From a virus: DNA of 64,000 nt. The translations under genes and the position numbers were made by a program. Where the stretch lies: positions 1 to 64,000 of IMG/VR virus record IMGVR_UViG_3300025151_000018, one strand, 5' to 3'. A model generated the notes under the pieces. That model saw only the letters and a list, made by a program, of their open reading frames with translations, ran no database searches and had not been told where the DNA came from. Each line of letters opens with the position of its first letter. Within the stretch, counting starts at the first letter, position 1. This document shows positions 9,782-32,475 of the stretch, in pieces.

Positions 9782-9791
9782 GTGTTTCGGG

Positions 9792-10432: not shown

Positions 10433-10566
10433 GCGAAGATACAATCCCCTGTCCTGATTGTAGTAATGTAATGGTGGAATGGCTTGAAGGAAAGCATCCA
10501 TCTGGTGAAGTAAAGAGGCGAGTTAGATGCAAACAATGTCGGAGATGGAAGTGGTTAGATGAGTAA
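10429..10566 (+). CDS. Zn-ribbon microprotein, 45 aa (not in ORF track)
   Basis: MSEDTIPCPDC...RCKQCRRWKWLDE; ATGA overlap. Confidence 0.7.
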   Translation: MSEDTIPCPDCSNVMVEWLEGKHPSGEVKRRVRCKQCRRWKWLDE

Positions 10567-11239: not shown

Positions 11240-11242
11240 CCG

Positions 11243-11256
11243 TAGTTTAATATAGG
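11243..11256 (+). promoter_or_regulatory. Putative TATA box
   Basis: GTTTAATATAGG about 25 nt upstream of ATG 11278. Confidence 0.45.
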
Positions 11257-11277
11257 CTACCCTCTGTGGCTATTGAT

Positions 11278-14781: not shown

Positions 14782-15340
14782 TGTAGTCAAGGAGGATATT
14801 GATTTCTTTGAGGCGTGTCCTAATGCAGATCCATATCTTGATAGCGATGAAAAACTAAACTCATTCCATGTCGCCAGAATGTATCTAAAAGAAAGGGATA
14901 GAGTTAGGGTATCTCATGCCATTAACAATGCGAGCATGGGAATGAAGTTTTACATGACTCTCCTAATGAATACGGTTGAGCCACAATATCAGCAGGGAGT
15001 CATGTTCGCAGCGAGAGAGTTGTATAAGAAAGTGCCAGAGGATTTACTATCCTCCGTAATAGCATTCTCACACCCCGGTGGTAGCCATGCAAGAATCAAA
15101 TTCCCAGAGAAATATGACAAAATACCCACGAAACTGTTGGGTGATTTGGGGTTAAGGTCTGATCAATTAAGTTGGTTTTACAGGTTGAGAGAGAACGAAG
15201 CCTTCATTCGGCTGATGGCAGGGAACATTGAACCAAAGCATAGAAAACATATCCCCCTATTTGATACCACACTACTCAAAACTAAGGCTAAAAGCAATAC
15301 TGAAAGCCTGTTTAGTAAGAAATGGGAGGCTAATCAATGA
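14768..15340 (+). CDS. Hypothetical protein, possibly clamp-loader accessory subunit (RFC-L C-terminal-like)
   Basis: Helical protein directly upstream of RFC; position only. Confidence 0.35.
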   Translation: MPLFDVVKEDIDFFEACPNADPYLDSDEKLNSFHVARMYLKERDRVRVSHAINNASMGMKFYMTLLMNTVEPQYQQGVMFAARELYKKVPEDLLSSVIAFSHPGGSHARIKFPEKYDKIPTKLLGDLGLRSDQLSWFYRLRENEAFIRLMAGNIEPKHRKHIPLFDTTLLKTKAKSNTESLFSKKWEANQ

Positions 15341-15360: not shown

Positions 15361-15398
15361 ACTCCCTATTGGCATAGGTGCAAGCGGAGGAATTTGTT

Positions 15399-16358
15399 AT
15401 GAGTCAGTTATGGATTAAACATAGACCAGATACCCTATCACACATGGTGGGGTTAGATAACCTAAAGAAAGATGTTCCCGGTTGGATTGTCTATGAAAAG
15501 AATAACTTTGTCTTGCGTTGTGGTGGTGTTATCTTTTCAGGTAAGCCGGGAACAGGTAAAACAAGTGCAGCGAGAGCGATAGGTAAAGATGCTCTTGGAT
15601 CTGCGTTTGAGGCAAACTACCATGTATTCAATGCCTCTGACGATAGAGGAATACAATTCATTAGAGATAGGCTGAAAGGTTTAGCACAACAGAAGGCTAT
15701 TAACTCCACATTCAAAATTATTAACTTAGATGAAGCCGATGGTTTGACTAAAGATGCACAAGATGCTTTGCGACAAATCATAGAAGAAACTTCATCACAT
15801 ACCCTATGGATTCTAACTTGTAATAGGGTGTCAAAGATTATCCCTGCCTTGAGATCAAGGCTACCGACATACAGTTTCAATCCTCTTGATGAAGATGAAT
15901 CAGAGGCTTTCCTTGCAAGTGTCATTGAAGAAGAAGGGCTACCAGCAAAGTGGGTTGAGGATTTACCTGCTCTTGTTTCTAAGTGCAAGGGTGATATGAG
16001 AGCGTGTCTAAAGACATTACAGATATGCAATCCTGATGAAGATGATGGTCTTAAATCACATCTTAGAGAGGATAATGCACTAATACATGATTTACATCAA
16101 ACGCTAATTCAACAAGACTATGAAAGTAGTCTGTCTATTGCAAATGACATTGTGAAGTCAGGGTTGAACCGTGAAGATATAATTACAGTTTTACATAATT
16201 CATTGTTATTTGAATTTCAAGATGGTGGTTTAGGTATTGCCATTGTATTGAAACGCCTGTTGATATTAGGTCAATGGGCTGCTAAGTCGCCAGATTGGAC
16301 TTCTGGCGATCTCCTATTCCTCCATGCAATGATTGGAGATTATCACAACAGAGGTTGA
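15399..16358 (+). CDS. rfcS: Replication factor C small subunit (clamp loader)
   Basis: WIKHRP, GKPGTGKT, NASDDRGI, LDEADGLT, LRSR, GDMR. Confidence 0.92.
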   Translation: MSQLWIKHRPDTLSHMVGLDNLKKDVPGWIVYEKNNFVLRCGGVIFSGKPGTGKTSAARAIGKDALGSAFEANYHVFNASDDRGIQFIRDRLKGLAQQKAINSTFKIINLDEADGLTKDAQDALRQIIEETSSHTLWILTCNRVSKIIPALRSRLPTYSFNPLDEDESEAFLASVIEEEGLPAKWVEDLPALVSKCKGDMRACLKTLQICNPDEDDGLKSHLREDNALIHDLHQTLIQQDYESSLSIANDIVKSGLNREDIITVLHNSLLFEFQDGGLGIAIVLKRLLILGQWAAKSPDWTSGDLLFLHAMIGDYHNRG

Positions 16359-17709: not shown

Positions 17710-18908
17710 TGGGAACAGGATTCTTAGACGGATTTGAGCCAAAGAAGGGTAATTTTGAACCAGAGCCAAAGGGCAAAGGAAAGAAGGCTTCTAAGGCTAA
17801 GACAAAGCCAAATACCACTAAGGTAGTTGAAGAGCCTGTTGTTCAAGGAACACAGGTTGTTGATGATTCATTTGATGCTGACAATGCAAGAGAAGCAAAA
17901 GCCTTGCAACCAGATCCTATCGTTGAAGAACCTAAGCAACAAAAGACTCAAGCATTACCTAATGCTAATTCCGCTATTCAGCGTATGATTGCATCAGCAA
18001 GAGTCCAAATGCCAGCAAAGCACAATTATGTCCTTGCAGGTATCGCTGGCCCACCTAAGTCTGGTAAAAGCGGTGGTGTCCTTGATAGCCGAACCAAAGA
18101 GGAAATCAAGAACGGTGCTGAAATAGCACACCTTGACTTTGATATGGGTGGTCTATCAACAGTAGCAGCGCACCATAGCGACAGTCCGGGCATTCTTGTA
18201 TTCAACCCTTGGGAGTTTAATTATGACTCTGAAACAAATGATTCTTATGATTTCCCTGCTACATACACAAAGACAATCAATCTATTGAAAGGTCTGTTAG
18301 AGCAGGTTGAGTATCAAAGAGCATACTATTCCGAACATGGTAAAATGCCTAAGCCTTATCTCAAAACTGTGGTGTTTGATGGTGCAGATCAATGGTTGCA
18401 CATCTGTGAAACAGTAATGAAGATTGAGGACTTAGAGTTGGGTGCTGATGGTCTTGATGCAGCAGTATATCTCCGTCAGCATGAGAAGGGTGATGCTAAG
18501 AAAAAGAGCGTTAGCCGATTCAATTGGAATCTAAGGACTATCAGATACCAAACTGCCATTCACCTATTGCGTGAGTTGTGCCGATTGGGTGTGCATTGTT
18601 ATGTTATCACACACATGAAACCCGGTTATGACTCATCAGGTAATGAGGTCGCAGGTGCTGATAAACCTAAGTGGCATTCCGATACAGAGGGTCAATTACA
18701 ACAGGTCATCTATACCGAATTAGAAGAAGAGCGTAATGAATTGGGCGAATTAACAGGTGTTGTCAAAGCATACGGTGTTGTTGTTGCTAACCGCACCAGC
18801 CTTGCATCACCAGAGCGTTTCCTTATCTTTGAGCGTAATTCCGATGGTGGAGTATGGCATGGTTGGCCGGGTATTGCAGAGGGCGACTTTACAGGGGGTG
18901 TTGAATGA
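17706..18908 (+). CDS. RecA-superfamily ATPase (RadA/Sak4/AAA_24-like)
   Basis: GPPKSGKS, LDFD, VVFDG, ITHMK. Confidence 0.75.
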   Translation: MMGTGFLDGFEPKKGNFEPEPKGKGKKASKAKTKPNTTKVVEEPVVQGTQVVDDSFDADNAREAKALQPDPIVEEPKQQKTQALPNANSAIQRMIASARVQMPAKHNYVLAGIAGPPKSGKSGGVLDSRTKEEIKNGAEIAHLDFDMGGLSTVAAHHSDSPGILVFNPWEFNYDSETNDSYDFPATYTKTINLLKGLLEQVEYQRAYYSEHGKMPKPYLKTVVFDGADQWLHICETVMKIEDLELGADGLDAAVYLRQHEKGDAKKKSVSRFNWNLRTIRYQTAIHLLRELCRLGVHCYVITHMKPGYDSSGNEVAGADKPKWHSDTEGQLQQVIYTELEEERNELGELTGVVKAYGVVVANRTSLASPERFLIFERNSDGGVWHGWPGIAEGDFTGGVE

Positions 18909-19699
18909 TGACTAAGATGAGCGTAAATCAAGGTCTATTCCTAAACTTCCTTAGAGGCTTCGCAGGTATGGAGGATATTGTCATTACAGTATCAGAAGAA
19001 GGCTATCGTGCATCAGGCACTATGGAACGATCATACTATGTTGAAAAGTGGGTTGAATACAGAGATGGTGAATCTTGTGATGAAGCAGGTAGTATTACTA
19101 TCGGTCAATTAGAATTGTTCAAAGCACTTGTAGCAAGTTGTGGCACAGGCATTATGTCTATTTCACAAGATTATGATACTATCCGTGTCCGTAGCGAAGA
19201 AGCCGACTTTACCATTCCGACAATAGCGGAGGCTAACTCTCAACAGGGTGTTGAAGTTGTAGCCGATATGGTAAAACTGTCAAGTGCTGACAATTGGGAT
19301 AAGTTTGGCGAAGCCGACATTCAATTCAATTCAACCTATGAAGCGGATAAGTTTCAGCAATTGAAGAATGCAGGTAAAGCAATCCAAACAGGTGCATTGT
19401 ATTCCGTTGAAATACAACAGGACAATACATTGTTGCTAACTGTTGTTCGTGATCAGATACGCTTCTCGGTGGATTTAGATGCCGATGAATTTTCAGTCTT
19501 TGAAGCAGGGGAGAATGTAATCCTCTGGTTCGGAAAGTGGCTTATGGATGCTCTCAAGGCTATGCCGGGTAAGGGAACAGTCCGTGTGCTTGGTGGTGCT
19601 GATGCACCATTGATAATCAAGCATGAAGCCCCAGACAATGAAGCATGGGGAACACTATGCGTCATTGCACCCCGGCAAGAGTCGGGGGATAATGCGTGA
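18905..19699 (+). CDS. pcn: DNA polymerase sliding clamp (PCNA-like)
   Basis: 264 aa, acidic; C-terminal DAPLII...CVIAPR typical of PCNA; between recombinase and PolB. Confidence 0.75.
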   Translation: MMTKMSVNQGLFLNFLRGFAGMEDIVITVSEEGYRASGTMERSYYVEKWVEYRDGESCDEAGSITIGQLELFKALVASCGTGIMSISQDYDTIRVRSEEADFTIPTIAEANSQQGVEVVADMVKLSSADNWDKFGEADIQFNSTYEADKFQQLKNAGKAIQTGALYSVEIQQDNTLLLTVVRDQIRFSVDLDADEFSVFEAGENVILWFGKWLMDALKAMPGKGTVRVLGGADAPLIIKHEAPDNEAWGTLCVIAPRQESGDNA

Positions 19700-22044
19700 T
19701 TATTGAGGCACTTGAACAAGATACATCAATGGATATTTTTCTCCGCTTTCGTGATGAAACGGGGAATGTGATGGAGAAAATTGTTGAGAAGGTTGAACCG
19801 TATTTCTATGTCCGTATGGAGGACATTGATGACATATTGCAGAGGTTTGAAACATCAGGATTGCAATATGGAGTTGGTTATGAAACAGGTGGCTATTGGG
19901 CTTTCAATCCCGATGACCCTGAAAACCCTATTGAATTGATGATGATTACTTGCAGTAAAACTTCTGATGTTAGAAGGCTGCGAGATTTGGCTATGGAATC
20001 ATGGGAGGCTGATGTTGATTTCAAGGACAGGTATCTTATTGACAATGTTCCCTTAGAAGATATGCCAAATTGGTATGACTACATGGTTAGAGCAGGTGGC
20101 TTCGATCTTGAATGGAATAGAGATGAAGAAATAACTGCTATGGGTTTCACCACAAATGGTGAACAAGTCCATCAATGGGCTTGGCATCCTAATTTACCAC
20201 AAATCAATCGGTCATGGATTCAACCATATTGCTTCTTCTTTGAAAATGAAAAAGAAATGCTCATTCATTTTGCTGATTACTTCTCGGACTTAGATCCAGA
20301 CATCATCACAACATGGGCGGGTAATCGTGCTGATTGGCCTATGATATACAAGCGATACAGGTTTCATGAATTAGATTTGGATTGGTTATCTTCAATACCT
20401 AACAGACAATCTGGTATGACTCCACCAATGAAGCCATTACCGAGAGATGGTTCATATCAAGAAGGCACACAAGTTGTGTTAGGTCGCTTAACATTAGATT
20501 TGGCTGACAGGAATCATGGCTTTGAGCGTGTATGGAAAGATAGTGGCAACGGTCAATTAGGAGATAGAAGATTGGGTTCTGTTGCTAAAGAAGCATTCCC
20601 CGATAATCCCGAATGGTGGAAAGTGGATTTTGAGAATGACCCAGAGTTAGAAGGTAAATGCGATAACCACCACGATCTATGGCTACACCACTTCAACAAA
20701 TTCCTTCAATACCATAGGGGAGATGTGCTACTAACAGATAGGTTAGACCGAGCATATCATGTTGGGAGATTCTTTAGTGCTTTACAGGCGGTTTGTGGCG
20801 TATCATACAAATCTGTATTTACAGTTAGTAAATTCGCCAGAGGTCAATTGCGAAGGCGAGCCAAATACAAAGCCCCATCAGCAAATTACAATTTACAGAA
20901 GCAAGGCTATCCCGGTGGCTTTGTATCAAAACCAAAAGGTGGTCGGCATCACAATGTAGCGGTTCTTGATTACAGAGCCATGTATGCTGAAATACAGAGG
21001 GGAGGAAATATCAGTCCTGAAACAAGAAGGAATGCACCGGGCAAAGACATCAAGCAATTACCCAACGGAACATATTGGTATCAAGGTAAAGTCGGCATAT
21101 TGCCACAGTTGCAAATGGATTTAGCCGATGCTCGCAATAAAGCGAAGGCGGAGATGAAGAAGCATGAGGCAAGTAGCAACGAGTATGCAGGTTTCAATGC
21201 TTTGCAGTTGGCGTATAAGAGAGCAGCAGCGAGTTGCTATGGTCTGATGGGTATGGAGGGCAACGGTGAATCCGATATGGTAGTTGCATCAACAATCACA
21301 TTCATGGGGCGTAGCCTTGTTGAGAGGTTAATGGAAATATGCGGTGAAATGGGTTATGAGCCACTTGCGGGTCATACGGATAGCGCATACATCGGCATAG
21401 GCGATGCTGACGGTGATAAAATTGCTAAGGAATTAACCAAGCGCATACAAGAGGAATATGACTCTGATCGGTTCGTTGTTGAGTTTGAGAAACTAATGAG
21501 GTCATGGGTCGCAGCGAATGATAAGAAGAATAGAAACTTCGGTTGGTGCATACACCCAAAAGAAGGATTACATTGCACAGGTTTTGAATTGAAGAAAAGT
21601 AATGCAGCATCCATCACAAAGCGTGTGCAAGAAGAAGCATTCATTTCATTGTGTCGTGATGATGGCGACAGAAAAGCGATTGATGATATTGTATTCGGTG
21701 CTATTGATGAAGTGAAGAATGGCAACATTAGCGTTGATGAAATCACAATGTGGGGCAGGTTAAGTAAAGATCCAGAGAAGTATGGTAATGGAAACTTCTG
21801 GGGTGCAGCAGCCAAATACAACAAAAGGAATGATAACAAATTCAAATCGGGTGATAGCGTTCCTCACATTTACACCACAAAAGGCATAGAAGCATATCAA
21901 ACAGATGAAGATGCTAAGAAATTGCGAGTTGATTGGACTACTGTTATATCTAATCAAATTATAGCCCCTGTTGCGCTCATTTACGATGCAATGGGATGGT
22001 CGCAACCAGACGCATCGGGGGCGAGAGCCAAGCCATTATTTTAG
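19696..22044 (+). CDS. polB: Family B DNA polymerase
   Basis: ExoI FDLE, ExoII WAGNRADW, ExoIII YHRGD; polymerase motifs DYRAMY, KRAAASCYG, GHTDS. Confidence 0.95.
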   Translation: MIIEALEQDTSMDIFLRFRDETGNVMEKIVEKVEPYFYVRMEDIDDILQRFETSGLQYGVGYETGGYWAFNPDDPENPIELMMITCSKTSDVRRLRDLAMESWEADVDFKDRYLIDNVPLEDMPNWYDYMVRAGGFDLEWNRDEEITAMGFTTNGEQVHQWAWHPNLPQINRSWIQPYCFFFENEKEMLIHFADYFSDLDPDIITTWAGNRADWPMIYKRYRFHELDLDWLSSIPNRQSGMTPPMKPLPRDGSYQEGTQVVLGRLTLDLADRNHGFERVWKDSGNGQLGDRRLGSVAKEAFPDNPEWWKVDFENDPELEGKCDNHHDLWLHHFNKFLQYHRGDVLLTDRLDRAYHVGRFFSALQAVCGVSYKSVFTVSKFARGQLRRRAKYKAPSANYNLQKQGYPGGFVSKPKGGRHHNVAVLDYRAMYAEIQRGGNISPETRRNAPGKDIKQLPNGTYWYQGKVGILPQLQMDLADARNKAKAEMKKHEASSNEYAGFNALQLAYKRAAASCYGLMGMEGNGESDMVVASTITFMGRSLVERLMEICGEMGYEPLAGHTDSAYIGIGDADGDKIAKELTKRIQEEYDSDRFVVEFEKLMRSWVAANDKKNRNFGWCIHPKEGLHCTGFELKKSNAASITKRVQEEAFISLCRDDGDRKAIDDIVFGAIDEVKNGNISVDEITMWGRLSKDPEKYGNGNFWGAAAKYNKRNDNKFKSGDSVPHIYTTKGIEAYQTDEDAKKLRVDWTTVISNQIIAPVALIYDAMGWSQPDASGARAKPLF

Positions 22045-22052
22045 GTGATATT

Positions 22053-22991
22053 ATGATTACACACAAGCCTCCGAAAGCATATCCAATACCAAACCATGAG
22101 GGTCTATTCTCATGTTATGATTGGCATCCAGACATGGCTGACAATATACTACCCAGAATGAGCAAATCATCTGTTATGTCGGACTTCGGCTTCTGTCAGC
22201 AACAGTATGGAATCAAGAGAATCATTGGTATGAAAGAGCCACAGAACGATGCTATGATTAGAGGAACGAATGTTCACGACTCGCTTGAGTATTTCTATGA
22301 TAATGTGGATATTGAGAAGGCTTCTGATATGGATCAAGAACAGTTGCGGATTTACTTCAAGAGTTGCTTTGGCAAACCAGAAAACGCAAGAGAGCCACAG
22401 GAAATGTGGCATTTAGATGAGGACTTGCATATTGACAGGTTATGTGAAGCAGAGGTTCAGCGTTTCATGGTATGCGACCCACAATACTTCTTGCCAACGG
22501 GCAACGAGTTAGAAGTGGATTTGGTTCACGAGATAGAAGTGGATGGCATACCACAAAAGATACATTTCAACGGATTTATTGACAGAGTATTCACTAATCC
22601 TGATGGGTCGCTTCATATCCATGAATTGAAAACAGGTAAATGGCTCAAGAATGGTAAAGTCAGCAAAATCAAAGAGGAAACTATGCGAAAGGAAATGGCG
22701 TTCTATGTTTGGCTTCTAAACAAGACCGACCCATCATTGAGGATTACTCATTGGGGTTGGGATCATACAGGTGGTGATGAGATATTCCGCCATGTTGAAC
22801 CATGCAGGGTTGAAGAAATCCAGAAGATGATTGCACAAATGCAAGACTGTGTTAGAAAGCATAGGAAATACAAGGGAGATGGCGACCTTTCACCGTTCAA
22901 CCTGTTAAATCCGGGCGCACAGTTTAGGATATGCGATCCTTGGTGTGCGGTCAAAGAGTTTTGTCCGAGATATGCGGAGGCTGAAATATGA
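22053..22991 (+). CDS. Cas4-like PD-(D/E)xK exonuclease with Fe-S cysteines
   Basis: FCQQQY, RGTNVH, GFIDRV...IHELKTGK, CDPWCAVKEFCP. Confidence 0.85.
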   Translation: MITHKPPKAYPIPNHEGLFSCYDWHPDMADNILPRMSKSSVMSDFGFCQQQYGIKRIIGMKEPQNDAMIRGTNVHDSLEYFYDNVDIEKASDMDQEQLRIYFKSCFGKPENAREPQEMWHLDEDLHIDRLCEAEVQRFMVCDPQYFLPTGNELEVDLVHEIEVDGIPQKIHFNGFIDRVFTNPDGSLHIHELKTGKWLKNGKVSKIKEETMRKEMAFYVWLLNKTDPSLRITHWGWDHTGGDEIFRHVEPCRVEEIQKMIAQMQDCVRKHRKYKGDGDLSPFNLLNPGAQFRICDPWCAVKEFCPRYAEAEI

Positions 22992-24301
22992 AGGATTTGC
23001 AGGTTTTGATTGGAGATTGTAAGGAAACGCTAAGGCAGTTGCCAGACAAAAGCGTTCACACTTGTATAACATCACCACCGTATTACGGATTAAGGGATTA
23101 CGGAACGGCTGAATGGGAGGGTGGAGATCCTGATTGCGAGCATTCAATCAGCCACTTTACAGACCCAAAGAAGCCAAATGTGGATAGGCCATCACGAAAG
23201 CCAGAGGATAGGAAGGTTTGCAACAAGTGTGGTGCTATCAGAACCGACAGTCAAATTGGTTTAGAAGATACCCCAGAGGAATTTATTGAAAACTTAGTTG
23301 AAGTATTCCGAGAGGTTAAGCGTGTATTGCGTGATGATGGCACACTATGGTTGAATTTAGGCGATACCTATTGGGGCGGTAAAGGCGCAAGCGGTCAAAT
23401 ATCAGCCGATAAGCAAGAAGCCAGAACAAATACAATAAGCACAAAGCATTCTCATGTCGGTGGTTCTAAACAAACAAGGCCGACAGATAGGACACACGGT
23501 ATCATCAAACCGAAGGATTTGATTGGCATACCTTGGATGGTTGCCCTTGCACTAAGGGCTGATGGTTGGTATTTGCGACAGGATATAATCTGGCAAAAAC
23601 CAAACCCCATGCCTGAATCTGTTAAAGATAGATGCACAAAGGCACATGAATACATTTTCTTACTATCCAAATCTAAGAAATACTACTACGATCATGAAGC
23701 AGTAAAACAGAGGACACAAGATACGGTTCAAGGTAAAAGAGGTCAAACGACATTCAGAAACAAAACCGAATCTATGCTAAAAGACAGGACTTGGGAACAT
23801 CATTACTCCGTATTTGGGAAACGCAATAGGCATTCAGTATGGAAAGTGCCTGTTAGACCGTTTAAGGAGGCACACTTTGCAGTATATCCACCAGAATTGA
23901 TTGAGCCTTGCATACTCGCTGGAACATCAGCAAAGGGTTGTTGTTCCGAATGTGGAGAACCATATAAGAGGTTGATTGAAACTAAGCGACCACCGACAAG
24001 ACAGGTAAATGCAAGGGATGTTCCCGGTCAAGAAAGGCATGGTTCTCTCGGTGTTGAAAGATTTGACGAGCCTATCAAGACTACAACAATTGGTTGGGAA
24101 TTAAGTTGTGATTGTAATGCTGATATTGTGCCATGCACAGTTTTAGATCCGTTTGGTGGCTCTGGAACAACCGCAGCAGTTGCACTAAAACACCAGCGAC
24201 AAGCGATATTGTGTGAGTTAAATGAAGATTATGTTGATATTCAACCATTAAGAATTGAAAAGATTAGTGGCAGAGTTGAGGGGCAACAGACATTGTTTTG
24301 A
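22988..24301 (+). CDS. Beta-class N4-C/N6-A DNA methyltransferase
   Basis: TSPPY, HFAVYP, DPFGGSGTT; Cys-rich inserts; ends QQTLF. Confidence 0.93.
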   Translation: MKDLQVLIGDCKETLRQLPDKSVHTCITSPPYYGLRDYGTAEWEGGDPDCEHSISHFTDPKKPNVDRPSRKPEDRKVCNKCGAIRTDSQIGLEDTPEEFIENLVEVFREVKRVLRDDGTLWLNLGDTYWGGKGASGQISADKQEARTNTISTKHSHVGGSKQTRPTDRTHGIIKPKDLIGIPWMVALALRADGWYLRQDIIWQKPNPMPESVKDRCTKAHEYIFLLSKSKKYYYDHEAVKQRTQDTVQGKRGQTTFRNKTESMLKDRTWEHHYSVFGKRNRHSVWKVPVRPFKEAHFAVYPPELIEPCILAGTSAKGCCSECGEPYKRLIETKRPPTRQVNARDVPGQERHGSLGVERFDEPIKTTTIGWELSCDCNADIVPCTVLDPFGGSGTTAAVALKHQRQAILCELNEDYVDIQPLRIEKISGRVEGQQTLF

Positions 24302-24310
24302 GGGGTAATT

Positions 24311-24553
24311 ATGGCGAGAGAATTTGCAGACGATGTGTATAACCCACAATTCTCCTATGATAGATCATGGGCGAGTATTGAGGATATGCTTGAAAAAGCC
24401 GAGAGAAAACAGAATAAACATTACATGGCTATGCAGGGTTGTAAAAAGAGCGAGCGTATGTTTCACATGAGAAACTACAAGGCTCTTGAGGGCGTTGTCA
24501 AGTCATTGAGATGGGTGCTTGGAGATAAAGACATAGAACATCCGTTGGAGTAG
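24311..24553 (+). CDS. Hypothetical helical protein
   Basis: 80-aa ORF with RBS. Confidence 0.65.
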   Translation: MAREFADDVYNPQFSYDRSWASIEDMLEKAERKQNKHYMAMQGCKKSERMFHMRNYKALEGVVKSLRWVLGDKDIEHPLE

Positions 24554-24560
24554 TGATAGA

Positions 24561-25715
24561 ATGACATACGAATTGATACATGGCGATTGCATCAAGGTTC
24601 TCCGTGAAATGGAGGACAATAGTGTTGATGCAGTTGCCAGCGACCCTCCGTATGGCATTGAGTTTATGGCTAAGAAATGGGATTATGATGTGCCTTCTGT
24701 TGAAATGTGGAAAGAATGCTTTAGGGTATTAAAGCCCGGAGGCTATTTACTATCCTTTGCGGGTTCACGCACATATCACCGTATGGCGGTGAACATTGAA
24801 GATGCAGGGTTTGAAATCCGTGATCAGATAATGTGGATTTACGGGTCTGGTTTTCCGAAAAGCCTCAATCTCAAAGATGATTGGGAGGGTTGGGGAACGG
24901 CTCTTAAACCAGCGCACGAGCCTATTGTAGTCGCTCGCAAGCCCTTCAAGGGAACAGTAGCCGAGAATGTGCTTGAGCATGGAACAGGGGCTTTGAACAT
25001 TGACGGTTGCAGAGTTGGTAATTTGGTTCAAGATACTTCAAGGAACGGGCGTAGTAAAGAAGTCCATGCTACTACTGTGTTTCAGGCTCGTTTGGGTGAA
25101 GAAGTTGATGGCAAAATTACAGTTGGTCGCTGGCCTTCTAACATTATTTTTGATGAAGAAGCGGGTGCTATGCTTGACGAACAAAGTGGAACGAGCAAAT
25201 CAACCGTTAGGCCACCAACAGGTAAAGGAATACTTGACCCAGATAAAGGTTGGAATAACAATTCAATGACAGACAAAACCATACGGGGCTTCAACGATTC
25301 TGGGGGCGCATCACGATTCTTTTACTGTGCTAAAGCGAGCAAACAGGAGAGAGATTTGGGCTTAGAATCATTTGAAGATGGCAAATCAAGAAAGTGGCGT
25401 GATGATAAGGGTATGAAATATACAGGTAGCGGTAATTTACGAGATGAAACAGGGAAAAACATACACCCAACAGTCAAGCCTGTTGCCTTGATGAAATACC
25501 TATGCCGACTCATCACACCACCTAACGGTGTTGTCCTTGACCCATTCATGGGATCTGGCACAACGGGCATAGCAGCAGCCACAGAAGGTTTCAATTTTAT
25601 TGGTATAGAGCGTGAAGAAGAATACATTGAGATTGCTCGCCATAGAATAGCACATTGGGTTGAAGAAAAAGAAGAAGTCCTTAGAGAAAAGAGAAGGCAA
25701 ACTACACTATTTTGA
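24561..25715 (+). CDS. Beta-class N6-A/N4-C DNA methyltransferase
   Basis: SDPPY, HPTVKP, DPFMGSGTT; ends QTTLF. Confidence 0.93.
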   Translation: MTYELIHGDCIKVLREMEDNSVDAVASDPPYGIEFMAKKWDYDVPSVEMWKECFRVLKPGGYLLSFAGSRTYHRMAVNIEDAGFEIRDQIMWIYGSGFPKSLNLKDDWEGWGTALKPAHEPIVVARKPFKGTVAENVLEHGTGALNIDGCRVGNLVQDTSRNGRSKEVHATTVFQARLGEEVDGKITVGRWPSNIIFDEEAGAMLDEQSGTSKSTVRPPTGKGILDPDKGWNNNSMTDKTIRGFNDSGGASRFFYCAKASKQERDLGLESFEDGKSRKWRDDKGMKYTGSGNLRDETGKNIHPTVKPVALMKYLCRLITPPNGVVLDPFMGSGTTGIAAATEGFNFIGIEREEEYIEIARHRIAHWVEEKEEVLREKRRQTTLF

Positions 25716-25724
25716 GGCGATAAC

Positions 25725-26789
25725 ATGACGGCACACATCTTTAGGCATTTTCCCAGAGAAGTGGATATGCGTAAGCGTAAGGTGGTGCATTCAATGGAGG
25801 AATTGCAGCAGTATGTTTCCGCTACCAATGGCGGTGATAATCTAACTACTACTGTGTATGGGTTTAGAGATCTCAAGCCAAGCGGTCATAGAGGCGAATA
25901 CAATACCGCAATCATACCGCACTTTGTCATAGACATGGATTATGAGAGGGCTATGTCAAACCGCACAATGGAGGAAGCGGGAGAAAGAACCCTCCATGAA
26001 GTGAACATGGTTCATCAGCATTTGTTGTCAAACGATTGGAAACACGCCATGTTCTTTACAGGTGGCGGGGTGCATATCTGGGTCAATCTTGACAGGACAT
26101 ACTACCCTGTTGGTTCAGAGATGTCCGACATATTGGTTGCGGGTCGCAAGATGATAACCAAGTGGGTCAAACAATGGGATTTGACTACATTAGACCCCGT
26201 TGTGTCGTTTAGACCAGACAGGCACATTCGCATTCCTAACACATTCAATTTCAAGCGTGGGCTATGGGGTATGCCTCTATCCACAGAGGACTTGACAGGC
26301 GGTTGGAAAACCATCATCAAGAGGGCTAATCACCCACATGGAGGCATGAAGATATATGGGTCAAACGGGCTTGAGATGGAGGTATTGAAGCGTGATCCGA
26401 GCAAGCCGTTTGAAGCAGAGGAAATAGACTTGAAGATGGAAAAGGTTGGCTCTATCTCTGTTTTACCATGTCTTGCTAACGCAGCCTGTGAAGTGGGTGG
26501 CAACCCACCGCATGAGGCTCGTGTGTATCTAACAATGTATCTTCAAGATAGGCTACGGTCATTCGCAAGACCGCCATCATCTTCATCGGTATCTAAAGAT
26601 AGTATCAAGAAATCAATTATTGCATTCATTAGAGATTTGAATTGGTCTGATTTTAATGACGAAACCACCACAAATCAAGTCAATCATGCAGTTGATAGGC
26701 AATACCTATCACCGTCATGTCGGACTCTTTATGAGAAGGGTTATTGTCTGGGGAAATGTCCTATGTATGATGGAAGCGGGGGTGTCTAA
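25725..26789 (+). CDS. Archaeo-eukaryotic primase, PriS catalytic domain fused to PriL C-terminal Fe-S domain
   Basis: IDMD, FTGGGVH, RHIRIPNT; LPCL...PPHEAR...SPSC...GYCLGKC. Confidence 0.88.
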   Translation: MTAHIFRHFPREVDMRKRKVVHSMEELQQYVSATNGGDNLTTTVYGFRDLKPSGHRGEYNTAIIPHFVIDMDYERAMSNRTMEEAGERTLHEVNMVHQHLLSNDWKHAMFFTGGGVHIWVNLDRTYYPVGSEMSDILVAGRKMITKWVKQWDLTTLDPVVSFRPDRHIRIPNTFNFKRGLWGMPLSTEDLTGGWKTIIKRANHPHGGMKIYGSNGLEMEVLKRDPSKPFEAEEIDLKMEKVGSISVLPCLANAACEVGGNPPHEARVYLTMYLQDRLRSFARPPSSSSVSKDSIKKSIIAFIRDLNWSDFNDETTTNQVNHAVDRQYLSPSCRTLYEKGYCLGKCPMYDGSGGV

Positions 26790-26796
26790 TTATGAG

Positions 26797-26875
26797 TAAA
26801 AAATCCAATTGGAAAATCAATTTTTCAATTGAAAAAATCATTGTCAATGGAAATGAAAATCCAATTGAAAAAACA
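26797..26875. repeat. AT-rich array of CAATTG-centred palindromes (candidate replication origin)
   Basis: TCCAATTGGA 26804-26813; TTTTTCAATTGAAAAA 26821-26836; CATTGtCAATG 26839-26849; CCAATTGAAAAAA 26861-26873. Confidence 0.6.
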
Positions 26876-26886
26876 CAGGTGATAAA

Positions 26887-27006
26887 ATGCGATTGACTAT
26901 AACTTTTTGCCAGAAGAAGGGGTGTAATAACATCATTAGATCAGGATTTAGATTTTGCCACAAGGCTAATTGTGGCAAGACAGAAGAAGTATCGGAGGAA
27001 GAATAG
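26887..27006 (+). CDS. Cys-rich microprotein, 39 aa
   Basis: MRLTITFCQKKGCNN...FCHKANCG; AGGTGA RBS. Confidence 0.55.
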   Translation: MRLTITFCQKKGCNNIIRSGFRFCHKANCGKTEEVSEEE

Positions 27007-27324
27007 ATGACAGATGAATTAGAGAAAATAAGGGCAGAGAAATTAGCAGCGTTGGGTCAAAAGATTAACGATGTTGAGAAGGACTTTGAAGATATACAGG
27101 CGTTGAAGAATGAATTTACATGGGCTGACTTTGGCTATGACGAACCCGAATGGGGCGTTAGAGAAAGTCAAGATGTTCCTAACGCATTTGAAGTATGTCA
27201 AAAGCGACAGGTGGTTGCATTGACACAATCCCTTGAATGGGGTATGTTGGTGTCTGATCTGCTTAACAGGGCTAAACTTGAGGAATTGATTATGACAAGG
27301 GGGGCTAACAATGACGAAAACTGA
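27007..27324 (+). CDS. Hypothetical protein
   Basis: ORF with GGAGG RBS. Confidence 0.7.
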   Translation: MTDELEKIRAEKLAALGQKINDVEKDFEDIQALKNEFTWADFGYDEPEWGVRESQDVPNAFEVCQKRQVVALTQSLEWGMLVSDLLNRAKLEELIMTRGANNDEN

Positions 27325-27676
27325 ACCAGATACATGGGTATTCACTTGTCCTGACGGCAACGAGTATCATGTTGGCGACATCATACCTATGCACAGAGCA
27401 GCCGAAGGTATCATCTTCGGTGAAGAAGTTGTTAGAATAGCCTGTCCGGGTTTTCCCGGTGCTACCGTAATCAATGAAATTACAGGTGAGAGTATAGAAA
27501 TACCTGCCATACCCCCAAGTAAAGATTGCTTCTTTGTTGGCCCTGAATCACAGGGTTGGCGTTGGCAGTATGCAAGAAGTGCAATCATGCACCACAAAGC
27601 GCATGAGGCATTTGAACAGAAGCAGTTGTTGAAGGCTCTGGGTAATTTAGATGAGGAAGGTGTGCAAGATGAATAA
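27311..27676 (+). CDS. Hypothetical protein
   Basis: Overlap-coupled ORF. Confidence 0.65.
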   Translation: MTKTEPDTWVFTCPDGNEYHVGDIIPMHRAAEGIIFGEEVVRIACPGFPGATVINEITGESIEIPAIPPSKDCFFVGPESQGWRWQYARSAIMHHKAHEAFEQKQLLKALGNLDEEGVQDE

Positions 27677-28373
27677 GATTCTATTTATTGATAACAGAGA
27701 ACGGTCTGGTCTTGAGGCTTTGGTGAAGAAACACGCAGAAAAGGCTAAGATTGAATGGGAAACCAAACAGAACCTAATCACAGACTATTGCTACGGTCAG
27801 GTTGCTATTGAAGCAAAGACCATGCAAGATTACTTTCAATCACTACAAAGCGGTCATTTACAATCACAATTAGAGAACATGGATGATAACTTCAACCATG
27901 TAATCTTGGTTATTCACGGAACAATAGACAAGTATGTGCGTCAAATGCGAAAGCGGGGTAATAGGACACCATACTCAAGGATTGAAGCCATGTTCATCGG
28001 CTCGTTAGCCAGATTTGATGTGGACTTTGACATTACTATCATGCACTTTGATACTACTTCGGCAGCAGCCCGATGGATTGTCAAGCGTTGTGAGAAAGAC
28101 GGCACACTTGGTAGCGCATCAACCTTTAGGCGCATGAGGCGAACCACAAGCGAAGATCTAAGAATTGATGGTCTAAGGGCTATGGGTTGCAGCGAGGCTA
28201 TTGCTAAGAAACTGATTGCTGAATTTGGCTCTCTTATGGAGATAGGTTCGGCTTCTGTCAAGGAATTGATGAAGATAGAAGGCGTTGGTAAAATAAGAGC
28301 GAAGGCAATCACAGAGGCACTAAATAGTGAGAGTCCTGTGATAAAGGAGAAGGTAAAGATCACATCAGCATAA
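27669..28373 (+). CDS. ERCC4/XPF (Hef-like) structure-specific nuclease with HhH tail
   Basis: IDNRE, TDY, IEAKTMQDY, KIEGVGKIRA. Confidence 0.88.
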   Translation: MNKILFIDNRERSGLEALVKKHAEKAKIEWETKQNLITDYCYGQVAIEAKTMQDYFQSLQSGHLQSQLENMDDNFNHVILVIHGTIDKYVRQMRKRGNRTPYSRIEAMFIGSLARFDVDFDITIMHFDTTSAAARWIVKRCEKDGTLGSASTFRRMRRTTSEDLRIDGLRAMGCSEAIAKKLIAEFGSLMEIGSASVKELMKIEGVGKIRAKAITEALNSESPVIKEKVKITSA

Positions 28374-28418
28374 ATGCTTATGTAAAGGAATATGTTGGGT
28401 AAAAATCCGAGGGGTGAA

Positions 28419-29987
28419 ATGATGGCAATAGAGATGAATGCGGGGTTAAATAGTATAACAAACACACAGAGAAAATGGTCTGATTATGCAGTTGTGAACG
28501 GTAATCAAACAGGTTCACAATTCATTAGAGGCTACATTGAGCGATTCAATACGGTATCATTTTTCAATGAATACGCAGGGCTTCTATCATACTTCTTTGC
28601 TATGGGTCAATTGGCTGCGCCATTTGTCCGTATTCCTATTCACGGAACATACATAGATTGCAGGGTTCACACATATTGGATTCAGCAATCAAGGACAGGT
28701 AAATCAATCGCATGGGAATTTACAGACAGACTGTTAGAGAAACTTGACATCTCTTCTGACTCATTTACGGCAGGTTCAGACGCAAGACTAATCGGAACAA
28801 TAGACAGGCAACCTGTTTTAGATGACAATGGGCGACCAACAGGTGAATACAATGACATTGTTGTTGAGGGGCTTCTAAATGGCTACAAAACACTACTGTT
28901 TGACGAGGCTTCTATTCTATTGAATGATGCAAAGGCACACTTCTCGGATAAGATTCTATACTTGCAACAGGCTATGGCCCCGTTAGGGTCAAGAACCAAT
29001 GTATTGGTTAAGCACTTGGTTGGTGGTTCTGTTAGGACTCCTTCTGGTGTTTCATTGTGGATGACTACATTCCCACCAAAAGACATTATGGATCATGTGC
29101 TTGACAAAGGTTTCTTTCAGCGTGTATTCCTATTTCAAAACGATGTATCTCTTGAGCAAAGACAGACAACAAGCGAACACCGTATGTCTGGTGCATACCG
29201 AAGGGTGTCAAACACTATCATGGATTATGAAACACTTGCCGATTATATGCAAGAATGTGTTGATTTGGTTAGAGAGCGACTATGGGATGCTATGGGGCTT
29301 GAAGTGGAACATGAAGAAGTTAGAGAGCGAAATGAAGATGGTGAATTAACAGGACAGATTATCACCGTTCCTGTATCAAGAGAAGTCCAATGGAATAACA
29401 TGAGCGCAGGGGCAAAAGAAGATGCTGCTATGGAACACGCTTATGATATATTCTCGGTATCACCGGGTTATGAGGCAGCCGTTCTAAATGCGGTTGATGA
29501 TTACTATGGTTTAGTCCATAGTGTATCAAGCGAAACCATTAGAGAAACCGCTATGACATTCGTTCCTAACATTGAAAACTACACACTTATCTTCTCTAAC
29601 TTGATTGCCATTACAATGAAATCATCTGTAATCACAGAGGATCATGTGATGATGGCAAGTGAAATCATCTATGATAATATGCACAATCTAATCATCTGGC
29701 TTGAACAGAAACAGAATTTCAAGGACAAAAAGCGACTTGCTGGTGAAAGAGCAGCATGGATGCAAGCATTCAACCAATTACAGAAGTTTGTTGATGAAAA
29801 AGACGGAAAGGAGAAGGTTAAGCAAACCGAGTTGTTAGCGACATACGCAGCACAACAAAGTATTGCCAACATTACGGCACAGAGGCGATTCAAAGCCCTT
29901 AGAGATGGGGGTCAGGCTATCGTTAGTCGTGCAGGTAGCGAGAACGGTGGTTGGAGAAACTATGTTATGTTCACATGGGGTGGTTAA
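28419..29987 (+). CDS. MCM-like AAA+ replicative helicase (divergent)
   Basis: Walker A SRTGKS, SDARLIG, Walker B LLFDEAS, Arg finger GFFQR; winged-helix-like C-terminus. Confidence 0.7.
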   Translation: MMAIEMNAGLNSITNTQRKWSDYAVVNGNQTGSQFIRGYIERFNTVSFFNEYAGLLSYFFAMGQLAAPFVRIPIHGTYIDCRVHTYWIQQSRTGKSIAWEFTDRLLEKLDISSDSFTAGSDARLIGTIDRQPVLDDNGRPTGEYNDIVVEGLLNGYKTLLFDEASILLNDAKAHFSDKILYLQQAMAPLGSRTNVLVKHLVGGSVRTPSGVSLWMTTFPPKDIMDHVLDKGFFQRVFLFQNDVSLEQRQTTSEHRMSGAYRRVSNTIMDYETLADYMQECVDLVRERLWDAMGLEVEHEEVRERNEDGELTGQIITVPVSREVQWNNMSAGAKEDAAMEHAYDIFSVSPGYEAAVLNAVDDYYGLVHSVSSETIRETAMTFVPNIENYTLIFSNLIAITMKSSVITEDHVMMASEIIYDNMHNLIIWLEQKQNFKDKKRLAGERAAWMQAFNQLQKFVDEKDGKEKVKQTELLATYAAQQSIANITAQRRFKALRDGGQAIVSRAGSENGGWRNYVMFTWGG

Positions 29988-30155
29988 GTGGGAATAAATT
30001 GCTGGTTTTGTGGTGGTAAAATGATATGGCAATCAGATGCAAATTATGATGAGGTATTTGCCGAAGGTGATGGGGTAGTAGCATTTCTAACCTGTTCATC
30101 ATGTAATGCCGAAGCAACATTTTCATTGAAGGAAGGAGATGAAGGTAATGATTAA
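29988..30155 (+). CDS. Zn-ribbon microprotein, 55 aa
   Basis: CWFCGG...CSSCNA; GTG start. Confidence 0.6.
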   Translation: MGINCWFCGGKMIWQSDANYDEVFAEGDGVVAFLTCSSCNAEATFSLKEGDEGND

Positions 30156-30738
30156 AGGAATAGCAGTAATTTACAATACAGACATAAACGATGAGTTTGA
30201 TGTTGAGCGAAAGATAAGAATGATAGCAGTATGTAATGATAGAAATGATGTTATGTTGTTTGCTGACTTTGATGAAGAATTAGGTGCTATCAACCGAAAG
30301 ACTGTTGGTTGTCATGTTTATGATCTTGGTGAATGCCAATGGAAAGATGAGTTTGGTAATGCCGATATATCAACACTAATTGGTTATGATTTGCATGATA
30401 CTCTAAACGGCAACACCTTTGACATTCTCCATGAGGTTAAGAAAGTTAGTGCCGATTATTTACAAAACAACGGCAAAAGGTTTGCACTTGAGGATTTACT
30501 TAGGTGGAATGGGATAAGAAGCAAGCCTATGATGTTGCTTGATAACATTAGAAAGGAAATGGCATACAAGAAAGGTGCTTTACACAAGGTAGCCAAAGTA
30601 GCAATCAATGAAGCAAAGATGTGCCTCAAATTATATCAGAAAGTAATCAAGACCAAGAAAGTTAGGTTTTTAGACGCTAATACAGGAAAGAAACCAGCCT
30701 GTGTTGTCAGTTGGGGTGAGTTTGGTGAGGAAGAATGA
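30139..30738 (+). CDS. Degenerate RNase H-like/DEDD exonuclease-fold protein
   Basis: LIGYD...FDIL...RFALEDL...KLYQ layout of YprB/RNase_H_2-like proteins; catalytic acids missing. Confidence 0.45.
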   Translation: MKVMIKGIAVIYNTDINDEFDVERKIRMIAVCNDRNDVMLFADFDEELGAINRKTVGCHVYDLGECQWKDEFGNADISTLIGYDLHDTLNGNTFDILHEVKKVSADYLQNNGKRFALEDLLRWNGIRSKPMMLLDNIRKEMAYKKGALHKVAKVAINEAKMCLKLYQKVIKTKKVRFLDANTGKKPACVVSWGEFGEEE

Positions 30739-30905
30739 GCAAACCAGACAAGGGAGTCGGACAAGTCCGAAAAATGTTCATACCATGTCCTTATTGCGAC
30801 AAGTGGGCTTGTGTCAGACATCTCGTTTGCCATCATTGCGAAACCCCCTTGCTACCAAAGGACTTGGATCCATACAGAGAAGAAGTCAGCACCAGAAGGT
30901 GGTAA
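30735..30905 (+). CDS. Zn-ribbon microprotein, 56 aa
   Basis: CPYC...CHHC; ATGA overlap. Confidence 0.6.
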   Translation: MSKPDKGVGQVRKMFIPCPYCDKWACVRHLVCHHCETPLLPKDLDPYREEVSTRRW

Positions 30906-30906
30906 A

Positions 30907-31044
30907 ATGAGTATGTGCAAGGAATGCGGTCATGCGATTAGTGTGAGGAATACAAGAACATCAAGAAGCAAAAGAGAAAGCATTTGCGGTAAATGTTATC
31001 TGCATCGTAAGGCGAAAGAGAGAAAACTCAAGGGTTTGGCTTAG
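30907..31044 (+). CDS. Zn-finger microprotein, last gene of the + strand block
   Basis: CKECG...CGKCY. Confidence 0.6.
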   Translation: MSMCKECGHAISVRNTRTSRSKRESICGKCYLHRKAKERKLKGLA

Positions 31045-32285
31045 AATAGCCTTCTTTGCATTTCCGACATATCAACAGTATTTGGGAAATTTCTCAAACC
31101 AATCATCTCAACCTTTGCTTCTTTGTTGCCTTTTGGTTTCCTAAGCCAAGGGTGTATTGTCATATCAGCATCTTGTGCAGCATCTATGAGATTATACATA
31201 GGTTCACCGTCTTTGTCATACATATAGTTGGAATAAATGACCGGGCCTTCTAACTCTGACGCTATACGCAGGGTATCTCTTTGCAAATCATCAAAGGTCT
31301 TGCCCTGCAATTGCTCTGCCGAACCGCCATAAGAAATATCTCTCCCCTGATATGGTGGATCTAGATAGGTAGTGTGCTGCGGTGTCAAAAACTCTGATGT
31401 TTGTCTTAAATCACCTGTGTGTATATCAACATCTTTCAATCTGGCAGCATAAGGGTCAAGGTTGATTGAGCCAACATCGTGTGGCATATATCTAACGCTT
31501 GAACTTCTAAATGAGCCTTCTGCATTAGGTATCTTGATTTTCCCCTCTGTGTATGGAACGGCAGGTTTTTCACCCCAATCTTCATAGGAAAACATACCAT
31601 CTCTGTATTGAAGGTTTGAACCAACCAGCAAATGAGCAAGCCTCATCAAATCATCATCGTCTAATTTTTCACCCATCACATCTCTCCGATAGCGTATTTC
31701 ATTCAATTCATTCATCATACGCACTTGATCATCATAATCTTGGGCTATATTCACATCACCCATGCCCTGTTGTAGTTGTGTCATAAGATTCGTCATATCT
31801 GGGTTAATATCGCCATATAGACCCCTCCCCTGATTCATTCCCAAAATGTATGAACCACTACCACCGAATAATTCAGCAGGTATCTTATCTTTACCAGCCA
31901 TTTGTGATAAGGCTCTCAATTGTGGTGCTATTTGCGTTTTGCCACCAATCCAATTGACTACCGTTGGCAACATCTCGGTTTCAGGGTTTGTAAAACCGGG
32001 TAAAGATGCAAAGATTTTGTTGTAATCTCCACCCGCCTTTCTCGCTCTCGCCATTTCAGCCCACGGCTTACCCCTTCTTTTGCCACCATCACCAAAATTT
32101 AACTCTGGTAAAATACCCGTAGTTGAAGTTTTGTTGGCCTTTGCGCTATTGTATCGTTCTAAAATATCCTTAATCATGGGGTCTATCTCGTCAATACTCT
32201 CGTATTCTTTCCCTCTGAAACTAATACTTTTCATCAGATCCCACGCATGTTGGGCTGCACGATCATGGGATATAACACCACGCAC
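31041..32285 (-). CDS. dam: Dam-like (alpha/D12 class) N6-adenine DNA methyltransferase with N-terminal extension
   Basis: NWIGGKT, ELFGGSGS, DIN, YLDPPY; likely GTG start at 32285 after GGAGG (ORF is open to 32333); ends QRRLF. Confidence 0.85.
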   Translation of the reverse strand: MRGVISHDRAAQHAWDLMKSISFRGKEYESIDEIDPMIKDILERYNSAKANKTSTTGILPELNFGDGGKRRGKPWAEMARARKAGGDYNKIFASLPGFTNPETEMLPTVVNWIGGKTQIAPQLRALSQMAGKDKIPAELFGGSGSYILGMNQGRGLYGDINPDMTNLMTQLQQGMGDVNIAQDYDDQVRMMNELNEIRYRRDVMGEKLDDDDLMRLAHLLVGSNLQYRDGMFSYEDWGEKPAVPYTEGKIKIPNAEGSFRSSSVRYMPHDVGSINLDPYAARLKDVDIHTGDLRQTSEFLTPQHTTYLDPPYQGRDISYGGSAEQLQGKTFDDLQRDTLRIASELEGPVIYSNYMYDKDGEPMYNLIDAAQDADMTIHPWLRKPKGNKEAKVEMIGLRNFPNTVDMSEMQRRLF

Positions 32286-32286
32286 A

Positions 32287-32475
32287 TTATTCCCTCCGAT
32301 GCCAATGCCGTGATAGACCACCATGCTCGGCATCCATCATTAAGTCCATATCGTTCTCAATAGGCTCTATGTCCTCCGAAAAATCAAACTTAATGGTTAG
32401 TGCATAAAGGTATAATGCAACCGAAAAGATTATAATACATATAAGCACCGAGAGCGCACCGAAAATTGAAATCAT
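32287..32475 (-). CDS. Small membrane protein
   Basis: N-terminal hydrophobic helix. Confidence 0.55.
   Translation of the reverse strand: MISIFGALSVLICIIIFSVALYLYALTIKFDFSEDIEPIENDMDLMMDAEHGGLSRHWHRRE

Follow-up and report, generated by a model that had tools for sequence, protein, structure and literature searches.

The window analysed here is a stretch of viral DNA of 64,000 nucleotides, positions 1 to 64,000 of the IMG/VR record IMGVR_UViG_3300025151_000018, whose whole length is 100,888 bp and whose completeness is estimated at 95%. It codes for a DNA polymerase of family B (PolB) and three DNA methyltransferases (MTases), here called MT1, MT2 and the Dam-like enzyme, all of which end in -LF, as part of a QxxLF peptide in the three MTases and of K-P-L-F in the polymerase. 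Judging from the sequences, QxxLF is probably a minimal, truncated C-terminal PCNA-interacting peptide (PIP) box, with the K-P-L-F of PolB being of the same kind, that would put the MTases and the polymerase on a PCNA clamp, most simply the viral one, and lead to replication-coupled methylation. A PIP box is a short linear motif by which a protein docks into the hydrophobic pocket of a PCNA sliding clamp, and binding of a family B polymerase to its clamp through the extreme C-terminus is established for gp43 of T4/RB69 and for archaeal PolB. In the mechanism proposed, both the PCNA-fold clamp and its RFC-like loader would be supplied by the virus, the MTases would be recruited by clamps that had been loaded at primer ends and stayed behind on the fresh duplex, and the daughter strands would be methylated just behind the fork. 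We infer that the tails bind a clamp, that the viral clamp, instead of or besides that of the host, is the partner, and that the benefit lies in shielding new DNA from host restriction. The features on which this proposal is built are the following, the four tails being read from the sequence:

15378..16358, plus strand: RFC-like clamp-loader ATPase, its synteny kept in all related loci (Pfam AAA 2.2e-15, DNA_pol3_delta2 1.1e-10, and Rep_fac_C weakly)
18905..19699, plus strand: predicted PCNA-fold sliding clamp of 264 residues (AF2 model and Foldseek)
19696..22044, plus strand: PolB (Pfam DNA_pol_B and exonuclease domain)
22024..22041, plus strand: tail of PolB, RAKPLF
22988..24301, plus strand: MT1, N6_N4 class (PF01555 1.5e-43; motif IV SPPY, motif I FGGSG)
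24281..24298, plus strand: tail of MT1, GQQTLF, putative truncated PIP box
24561..25715, plus strand: MT2, N6_N4 class, M.HindIII-like (PF01555 4.1e-37; DPPY, FMGSG)
25695..25712, plus strand: tail of MT2, RQTTLF, putative truncated PIP box
31041..32333, minus strand: Dam-like adenine MTase of the D12 class, last gene of the minus-strand (late) block (PF02086; DPPY, FGGSGS)
31044..31061, minus strand: tail of the Dam-like enzyme, MQRRLF, putative truncated PIP box

The four C-terminal tails

For the whole genome, represented by a greedy set of 94 open reading frames (ORFs), -LF ends are found in four ORFs, those of PolB and of the three MTases, and in none other, where the amino-acid composition of the genome would lead to expect 0.23 (P of four or more ~1e-4). 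For QxxLF ends, three are observed and 0.01 expected (P ~1.4e-7). An initial annotation of this DNA had listed the four C-termini as RAKPLF, GQQTLF, RQTTLF and MQRRLF, which proved exact on re-reading, and had spoken of all three MTases, a wording that Pfam scans extend to the whole 100,888-bp record. These whole-record profile scans detected two PF01555 enzymes, one PF02086 enzyme, no PF00145 enzyme and no fourth DNA MTase, so that every MTase of this virus has the tail. The two enzyme classes proposed at the outset were also confirmed by Pfam, with two N6_N4_Mtase domains and one MethyltransfD12 domain scoring above the cut-offs, and both the catalytic motif IV ((D/S)PPY) and the S-adenosylmethionine motif I (FxGxG) are present in MT1, MT2 and the Dam-like enzyme.

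Similarity between MT1 and MT2 is confined in BLASTP to the catalytic motifs IV and I, the same program gives no significant similarity of the Dam-like enzyme to either of them, and the three proteins are not alignable in the tail region. All three share a Gln at PIP position 1 (-5), and the aliphatic position 4 is a Leu in all four tails. The QxxLF of the window is the result of neither chance nor shared descent. An AF2 model of MT2 (alignment A2) had a mean pLDDT of 30.8, too low to judge disorder or exposure of its tail.

The viral clamp and its genomic setting

The virus can be placed among the magroviruses (order Magrovirales, infecting marine Poseidoniales archaea), as judged by its size, two-module layout and gene set against the published descriptions (PMC10768690, PMC5434244). 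Magroviruses are tailed viruses of 90-100 kb with two modules transcribed in opposite directions, which have PolB, clamp, RFC, AEP primase and MCM-like helicase genes of their own. In the present genome, two opposed modules, a PolB, a PCNA-fold clamp, an RFC-like loader and a PriL-like domain were all found. The coding strand switches at ~31 kb, with plus-strand genes before this point and minus-strand genes after it. The plus-strand block is the replication module, which includes an SNF2/ResIII helicase, the RFC-like ATPase, the 264-residue clamp, PolB, a PD-(D/E)XK nuclease, the two N6_N4 MTases, a protein with a primase large-subunit (PriL-like) domain and an XPF/ERCC4-HhH nuclease.

A viral PCNA had initially been placed at 18905-19699, and structure prediction bears this out. 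The 264-residue protein gave no match to Pfam (E ≤0.01; PCNA_N/PCNA_C) or PHROG and no significant match to PDB profiles. Its AF2 model, made with 16 homologues, reached a pLDDT of 87.4 and a pTM of 0.84, and all its top Foldseek matches in the PDB were archaeal or eukaryotic PCNAs (probability 1.00, with TM of 0.58-0.73 among the matches listed), many of them solved as complexes with PIP peptides. The model displays the two-domain processivity fold of ~250-260 residues, and the product of 18905-19699 is, on this model, a PCNA by fold alone, too divergent for Pfam. Moreover, a segment near the C-terminus, A-P-R-Q-E, is fixed or almost fixed in 17 homologues, and it may resemble the A-P-K-I-E with which PIP peptides pair in human PCNA. 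The gene for the RFC-like loader lies 2.5 kb upstream of the clamp gene.

Co-folding of the tails with the viral clamp had been put forward as a check, and it was carried out with the clamp alignment and residues 351-384 of MT2. The median ipSAE was 0.33 (runs of 0.33, 0.59 and 0.25) in comparison with 0.02 for the best of three controls, the runs shared at least 91% of contacts and the pLDDT of the partner was at least 59. In the calibration of this procedure, the mark was reached by 58 of 80 solved complexes and by 2 of 110 mismatched pairs, with 7 of those 80 solved complexes and both passing mismatches falling at ≤0.60. The co-fold thus lends weak support to docking of the MT2 tail on the clamp, and may mirror the solved PCNA-peptide complexes.

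Tails in related magroviruses

Related loci (n=34) were gathered via the clamp alignment. In the complete ones the gene order is RFC, clamp, PolB, nuclease, (MTases), primase, XPF and helicase-like. A related-locus search seeded with the Dam-like protein gave no relatives, and its homologues came from a protein search. Tails of fuller PIP-like form are found in these magrovirus contigs, namely QxxLF[DE]W, QxxLxxFF and QxxLxxYW. Orthologues of PolB end in KPQEWW, VPQDWWN, RPVSLW or PEEW, and in AKPLF in the closest relative (L082). Those of MT1 end in EQRTLFDW, TQKTFDDWW or SLEQITDW, with NQMTLW in a further homologue, and those of MT2 in AQRSLFEW, AQTSLFDW or AQKSLFDW. Among homologues of the Dam-like enzyme the ends are LQQRLF, AQRTLF, QRKLF, QQKLF, QQKTLF, KSIFDY and NLFDF. 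Full canonical PIP boxes appear in more distant homologues of all three enzymes: GQIRLSDYW and GQLTLGDF on MT1-type proteins, KQPSLLDFLGGSE and KQPTLFDFLGGSE on MT2-type ones, and QQNLDRFFQ and QENLNKYF on Dam-type ones.

Loss of the tails among orthologues had been named as an outcome that would refute the proposal, and the opposite was found. Orthologues keep PIP-type tails, and in the alignment of MT2 the residues Q380 and L383 are invariant after a variable linker, in tails such as QRSLFEW, QTSLFDW, QPSLLDFLGGSE and QLSLF, with QPTLFDFLGGSE also among the MT2 orthologue tails. Orthologues have Trp, Phe or Tyr at PIP positions 7 and 8, and since the relatives continue with [DE]-W or with x-x-aromatic-aromatic, the QxxLF of the window can be read as a PIP box that stops after position 5. 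One related virus (L100) mixes the forms, with ...VSLW on PolB, ...LFDW on MT1 and ...QQKTLF on the Dam-like enzyme. Strict co-variation of the PolB and MTase tails with the clamp lineage was considered and rejected, given these long and short forms in one virus. Because of this coexistence, the short and long tails are best seen, at the sequence level, as variants for one pocket and not as lineage-specific co-variation.

A tail independent of the catalytic fold

Related viruses can have C5 MTases (PF00145) between nuclease and primase or in neighbouring slots, and these end in KQKTLW, GQRTLFEW, QHTQMRLW or EQKSIFDF. Moreover, a PAPS-reductase/PP-loop protein encoded between PolB and the nuclease (L084:6708-7670 and L086:13078-14037), and not in the window, ends in PKELW or PKEWW, resembling the PolB tail of the same genomes. 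From its sequence, this protein may be a further clamp-tethered DNA-modification enzyme.

When the tail was defined as Q-x-x-aliphatic together with an aromatic among the 12 C-terminal residues, it was present in the magrovirus loci on 12 of 13 distinct MTases, in comparison with 12 of the 307 remaining ORFs that reach 120 residues or more (Fisher P 1.7e-14). By class, the tailed MTases comprised 8 of 9 N6_N4, the single D12 and 3 of 3 C5 enzymes. The initial annotation had held that common descent alone is unlikely to explain the shared tail, and its presence on three unrelated MTase classes within one virus family agrees with that view. The 12 tailed ORFs other than MTases belong to two small families of the replication module, homologous to these two products of the window:

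14768..15340, plus strand: replication-module protein of 190 residues, possible further clamp client in relatives
10559..11239, plus strand: protein of 226 residues, family not recognised, whose orthologues have QxxLF followed by an acidic end

Neither protein has Pfam or PHROG matches. Orthologues of the first end in KQDALF, NQGALF or KGATLW, the window copy ends in ESLFSKKWEANQ, and an Atlas lead points to an AEP-like primase domain only (score 0.91). Orthologues of the second end in QTSLFEEE, QTALFEEE or QQDLFTDSEEE, and the window copy is without the motif (ITLTSEEE). Since unrelated MTase classes and the PAPS-reductase-like protein bear the tail, it is, on the evidence of these sequences, a transferable add-on found on proteins of the replication module, and on DNA-modification enzymes most of all.

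Homologues beyond the magroviruses

Clamp-type tails extend to more distant relatives, in counts that ignore kinship, the sequences not being phylogenetically independent. Among the best 120 cluster representatives of MT1 homologues, 69 have a clamp-type tail, including EQLSLF, TQLDLF and many of the form ...APLF..., and among 150 representatives of MT2 homologues (50% identity) it is found in 41, with QLSLF, QLDLF and QPSLFD being recurrent. In IMG/VR loci, LF lies in the last 12 residues of 33 of 70 distinct MT1/MT2 homologues versus 10 of 669 other ORFs. On inspection of the tails listed, about half of the MT2 representatives stop where the final helix of the fold is complete, as do the closest cultured-phage homologues, which again makes the tail an add-on. 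No tail motif was found on the homologues of Dickeya JA11, Methanoculleus virus L4768, Klebsiella SJM3, E. coli BUCT618 and mycobacteriophage Lilizi, and that of Pseudomonas phage phiPSA1 has QMDVF nine residues before its end.

This wider pattern, offered as a lead, suggests from the sequences that the type of motif follows the type of host clamp; a distribution of PIP motifs in archaeal viruses and of QLSLF in phages is likewise a lead and not a result. Tentatively, and as a possibility that falls somewhat short of probable, the DNA-modification enzymes of viruses and mobile elements (N6, N4 and C5 MTases and PAPS-reductase/DndC-like proteins) may generally be equipped with exchangeable clamp-docking peptides at the C-terminus, of PIP type with PCNA and of QL[SD]LF type with the beta clamp.

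A separate observation concerns an 80-kb viral contig (L004) with three consecutive MTases at 6736-11461, of C5, MT2 and MT1 type, which end respectively in EQKSIFDF, KQPSLLDFLGGSE and GQIRLSDYW, canonical PIP boxes. No clamp or PolB gene was detected in this 76%-complete record. Scans of the non-magrovirus contigs with tailed MTases for a beta clamp (PF00712), the magrovirus-type clamp (A1), PolB (PF00136) and PCNA_N (PF00705) gave none either, a null that shows nothing since these records are incomplete (7-87%).

Restriction context

The genome bears the marks of strong restriction pressure, in which site avoidance and methylation would be combined, as indicated by the heavy purging of short palindromes. 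In the whole genome, ACGT is observed 0 times for 112 expected under a Markov model, AGCT 0 for 322, GTAC 0 for 238, CTAG once for 266, CGCG once for 116 and TCGA 18 times for 188, with GATC, CCGG, GGCC and GCGC only about two-fold below expectation. All 18 TCGA sites overlap GATC, in a GATCGA or TCGATC context, so that the TCGA/GATC footprint invoked in the initial annotation is real. Thirteen of them lie in the window and five more beyond it:

TCGA sites in the window: 1032, 2476, 5848, 7743, 8817, 9979, 17021, 20102, 33697, 37267, 37377, 46263 and 49742

Overlapping Dam methylation blocks cleavage of the TaqI type. The pattern of these sites is consistent with what would be expected if methylation of the GATC adenine shielded the sole tolerated TCGA sites from a TaqI-like enzyme. 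Restriction-modification is a kinetic race, in which new or injected DNA needs to be methylated before the nuclease arrives, and a peptide that docks the MTase on the clamp would win this race by placement and not by enzyme speed. Under such restriction pressure a fast, fork-coupled methylation is plausible, which is not a proof.

As regards the specificity of the enzymes, MT2 shares 52-53% identity with phage genes that bear the annotation hindIIIM (M.HindIII, AAGCTT). Despite this M.HindIII-like MT2, AGCT, and hence AAGCTT, occurs 0 times in the genome. MT2 would have either a different specificity or no target on the viral DNA itself.

Other signals were observed at protein ends in the same genome. 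A peptide AF-x-x-(A/G)-W-(D/E)-L-M-K forms the very start of homologues of the Dam-like enzyme, whose own N-terminal region is at 32230-32270 of the window on the minus strand, and this enzyme thus carries an N-terminal tag together with its C-terminal PIP-like tail. Glu-rich ends (GEEE, DEEE, SEEE, GGGE, FGEEE) are seen on many plus-strand proteins of the replication module (window 6026-30738), and they look like a DNA-level feature and not a peptide signal because several sit at GAATGA stop/start overlaps (ATGA). Finally, an ORF of 483 residues at 12981-14432, a putative ligase without the catalytic lysine, matched nothing in Pfam or PHROG under the thresholds applied and has no clamp-type tail.

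Weighing the alternatives

Several points weigh against docking of the tails on the viral clamp. The tails end with the Phe of PIP position 5 and do not reach the aromatics at positions 7-8, to which canonical PIP boxes owe a large part of their binding. The canonical pattern with two aromatics (Q-x-x-[LIM]-x-x-[FY]-[FYW]) is not matched, the motif being a truncated PIP-like one, and the K-P-L-F tail of PolB is without the Gln. The clamp-binding-like tails of the initial annotation thus need the qualification that they are cut at position 5 and that PolB departs at position 1. Moreover, no such tail was found on the other expected PCNA clients of the genome (the XPF/ERCC4 and PD-(D/E)XK nucleases and the ligase-like protein), long and short tails in L100 leave no clean co-variation with the viral clamp, PIP-tailed MTases exist on viral contigs, from incomplete records, where no clamp gene was detected, and the sole co-fold is weak.

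Such contigs bear on the choice of partner, since with tailed MTases and no detected clamp gene the PCNA of the host could be the partner. It is thus conceivable, if unlikely, that the tails are genuine PIP-type motifs that dock on the host (Poseidoniales) PCNA and bring the MTases to whatever DNA is being replicated in an infected cell, as the canonical tails of the L004 trio and the imperfect match between tail forms and viral clamp lineage would allow. The records in question are only 7-76% complete, however, and a clamp gene may be missing from them, whereas clamp, loader, PolB and MTases are syntenic in this virus family, and PolB, which must use the replicative clamp, has the same kind of tail. 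Docking on the host PCNA and docking on the viral clamp are in any case not mutually exclusive.

A purpose other than clamp binding, such as a degradation tag, a localisation signal or docking on another hub (primase, helicase or a virion component), is a good deal less likely still. The motif is short, devoid of PIP positions 7-8 and assigned to clamp binding by sequence, and the AWDLMK-type tag at the N-terminus of the Dam-like enzyme indicates that other targeting signals occur in the genome. Nevertheless, the tails of relatives match the PIP consensus in register (Q1, L4 and the aromatics 7 and 8), their extreme C-terminal position is that of archaeal PCNA clients, with a PolB tail of the same kind, and apparent phage homologues have at the same place QLSLF or QLDLF, the bacterial clamp consensus, a parallel hard to explain without a clamp.

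As for chance, shared ancestry of the MTases or a DNA-level signal at gene junctions, they form a very improbable explanation, in spite of MT1 and MT2 belonging to one Pfam family and both ending in TTT TGA GG, which overlaps the downstream ribosome-binding site, for chance is excluded by the probabilities given above (~1e-4 to 1e-7), the Dam-like and C5 enzymes have the same tail on unrelated folds or permutations, and the Dam-like gene is followed by no other gene and differs in the codons used.

Two candidates at the DNA level were rejected. The junction motif TTTTGAGG after MT1 and MT2 is rare, is not found at the Dam-like gene and ends no other plus-strand gene of the replication module, and as a cause of LF the full motif ([CT]T[AG]TTTT[AG][AG]GG) occurs at two genome sites only, with none on the minus strand (7 to 11 for looser forms). 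Read-through or recoding of the TGA that follows LF in MT1 and MT2 was discarded as well, TGA being the main stop codon of the genome (59 of 94 genes).

Comparison with known systems

A general use of clamp-docking peptides by DNA-modification enzymes, if true, would mean that replication-coupled methylation is no eukaryotic invention, as in DNMT1-PCNA, but widespread, closing the unmethylated interval that is open to restriction. The virus would represent an unusually clean case, with the motif on every MTase and on the polymerase, clamp and loader encoded nearby and extreme scars of restriction avoidance, and would provide a sequence rule for predicting replication-coupled methylases in metagenomes, which is a tail after the last helix of the MTase fold. 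For DNA methyltransferases of viruses, archaea or bacteria, no description of a clamp motif was found in the full-text literature, two recent reviews of clamp partners included and subscription-only papers lying outside this scope, and methyltransferases are not mentioned in the magrovirus papers (PMC10768690, PMC5434244).

The archaeal clients that bind PCNA through a C-terminal PIP box include PolB, the large subunit of RFC, Fen1, NucS and NreA (PMC4929162). The closest hint of a methylating partner is an adenine methyltransferase that co-purifies with NucS, PCNA and RFC in Pyrococcus abyssi (PMC4929162). In contrast with the PIP clients listed in that work, which include no DNA methyltransferase, those proposed here are DNA MTases, their tails in the window stop after position 5 and the clamp is virus-encoded. 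As in the archaeal clients, a short linker precedes the motif, which forms the extreme C-terminus, with Q1, an aliphatic residue at position 4 and a predicted PCNA-fold partner, and the magrovirus relatives have the full Q-x-x-L-x-x-aromatic-aromatic.

In eukaryotes, the PIP box of DNMT1 is located in its N-terminal region. The coupling of DNMT1 to PCNA, through a PCNA-binding motif and a preference for PCNA-bound, newly replicated DNA, is described in a passage of PMC9690074 that cites Iida et al. 2002. Both cases would have in common a DNA methyltransferase with a motif of the PCNA-binding type. Unlike DNMT1, a large C5 maintenance enzyme, those of this archaeal virus are small enzymes of prokaryotic type (N6/N4 and D12) with a C-terminal mini-motif, and their likely role would be anti-restriction and not epigenetic inheritance.

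In bacteria, the consensus of the motif that binds the beta clamp is QL[SD]LF (PMC11139829). The tails described here share with it the five-residue Q-x-x-L-F at the C-terminus, and homologues of MT1 and MT2 elsewhere end in QLSLF or QLDLF. The likeness is one of resemblance only, since this virus, which belongs to an archaeal virus order, encodes a clamp of PCNA fold instead of DnaN, and its tails have no Leu at position 2. The 2024 review from which the consensus is taken does not contain the string 'methyl', no methyltransferase thus being counted among beta-clamp partners (PMC11139829). Sliding clamps are also exploited by phages, with gp45 of T4 acting as a hub for the non-polymerase clients gp33 and gp55 (PMC2988020, PMC9690074) and MuC of phage Mu using the host clamp (PMC12867686). 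In these systems, as proposed for the magrovirus, a virus uses the sliding clamp as a mobile platform via short terminal motifs, the difference being that the phage clients are transcription factors, whereas here they would be DNA-modification enzymes. The tailed proteins would be PCNA clients, which are of a known kind, and functionally analogous to the DNMT1-PCNA pair, with the MTases as the new clients.

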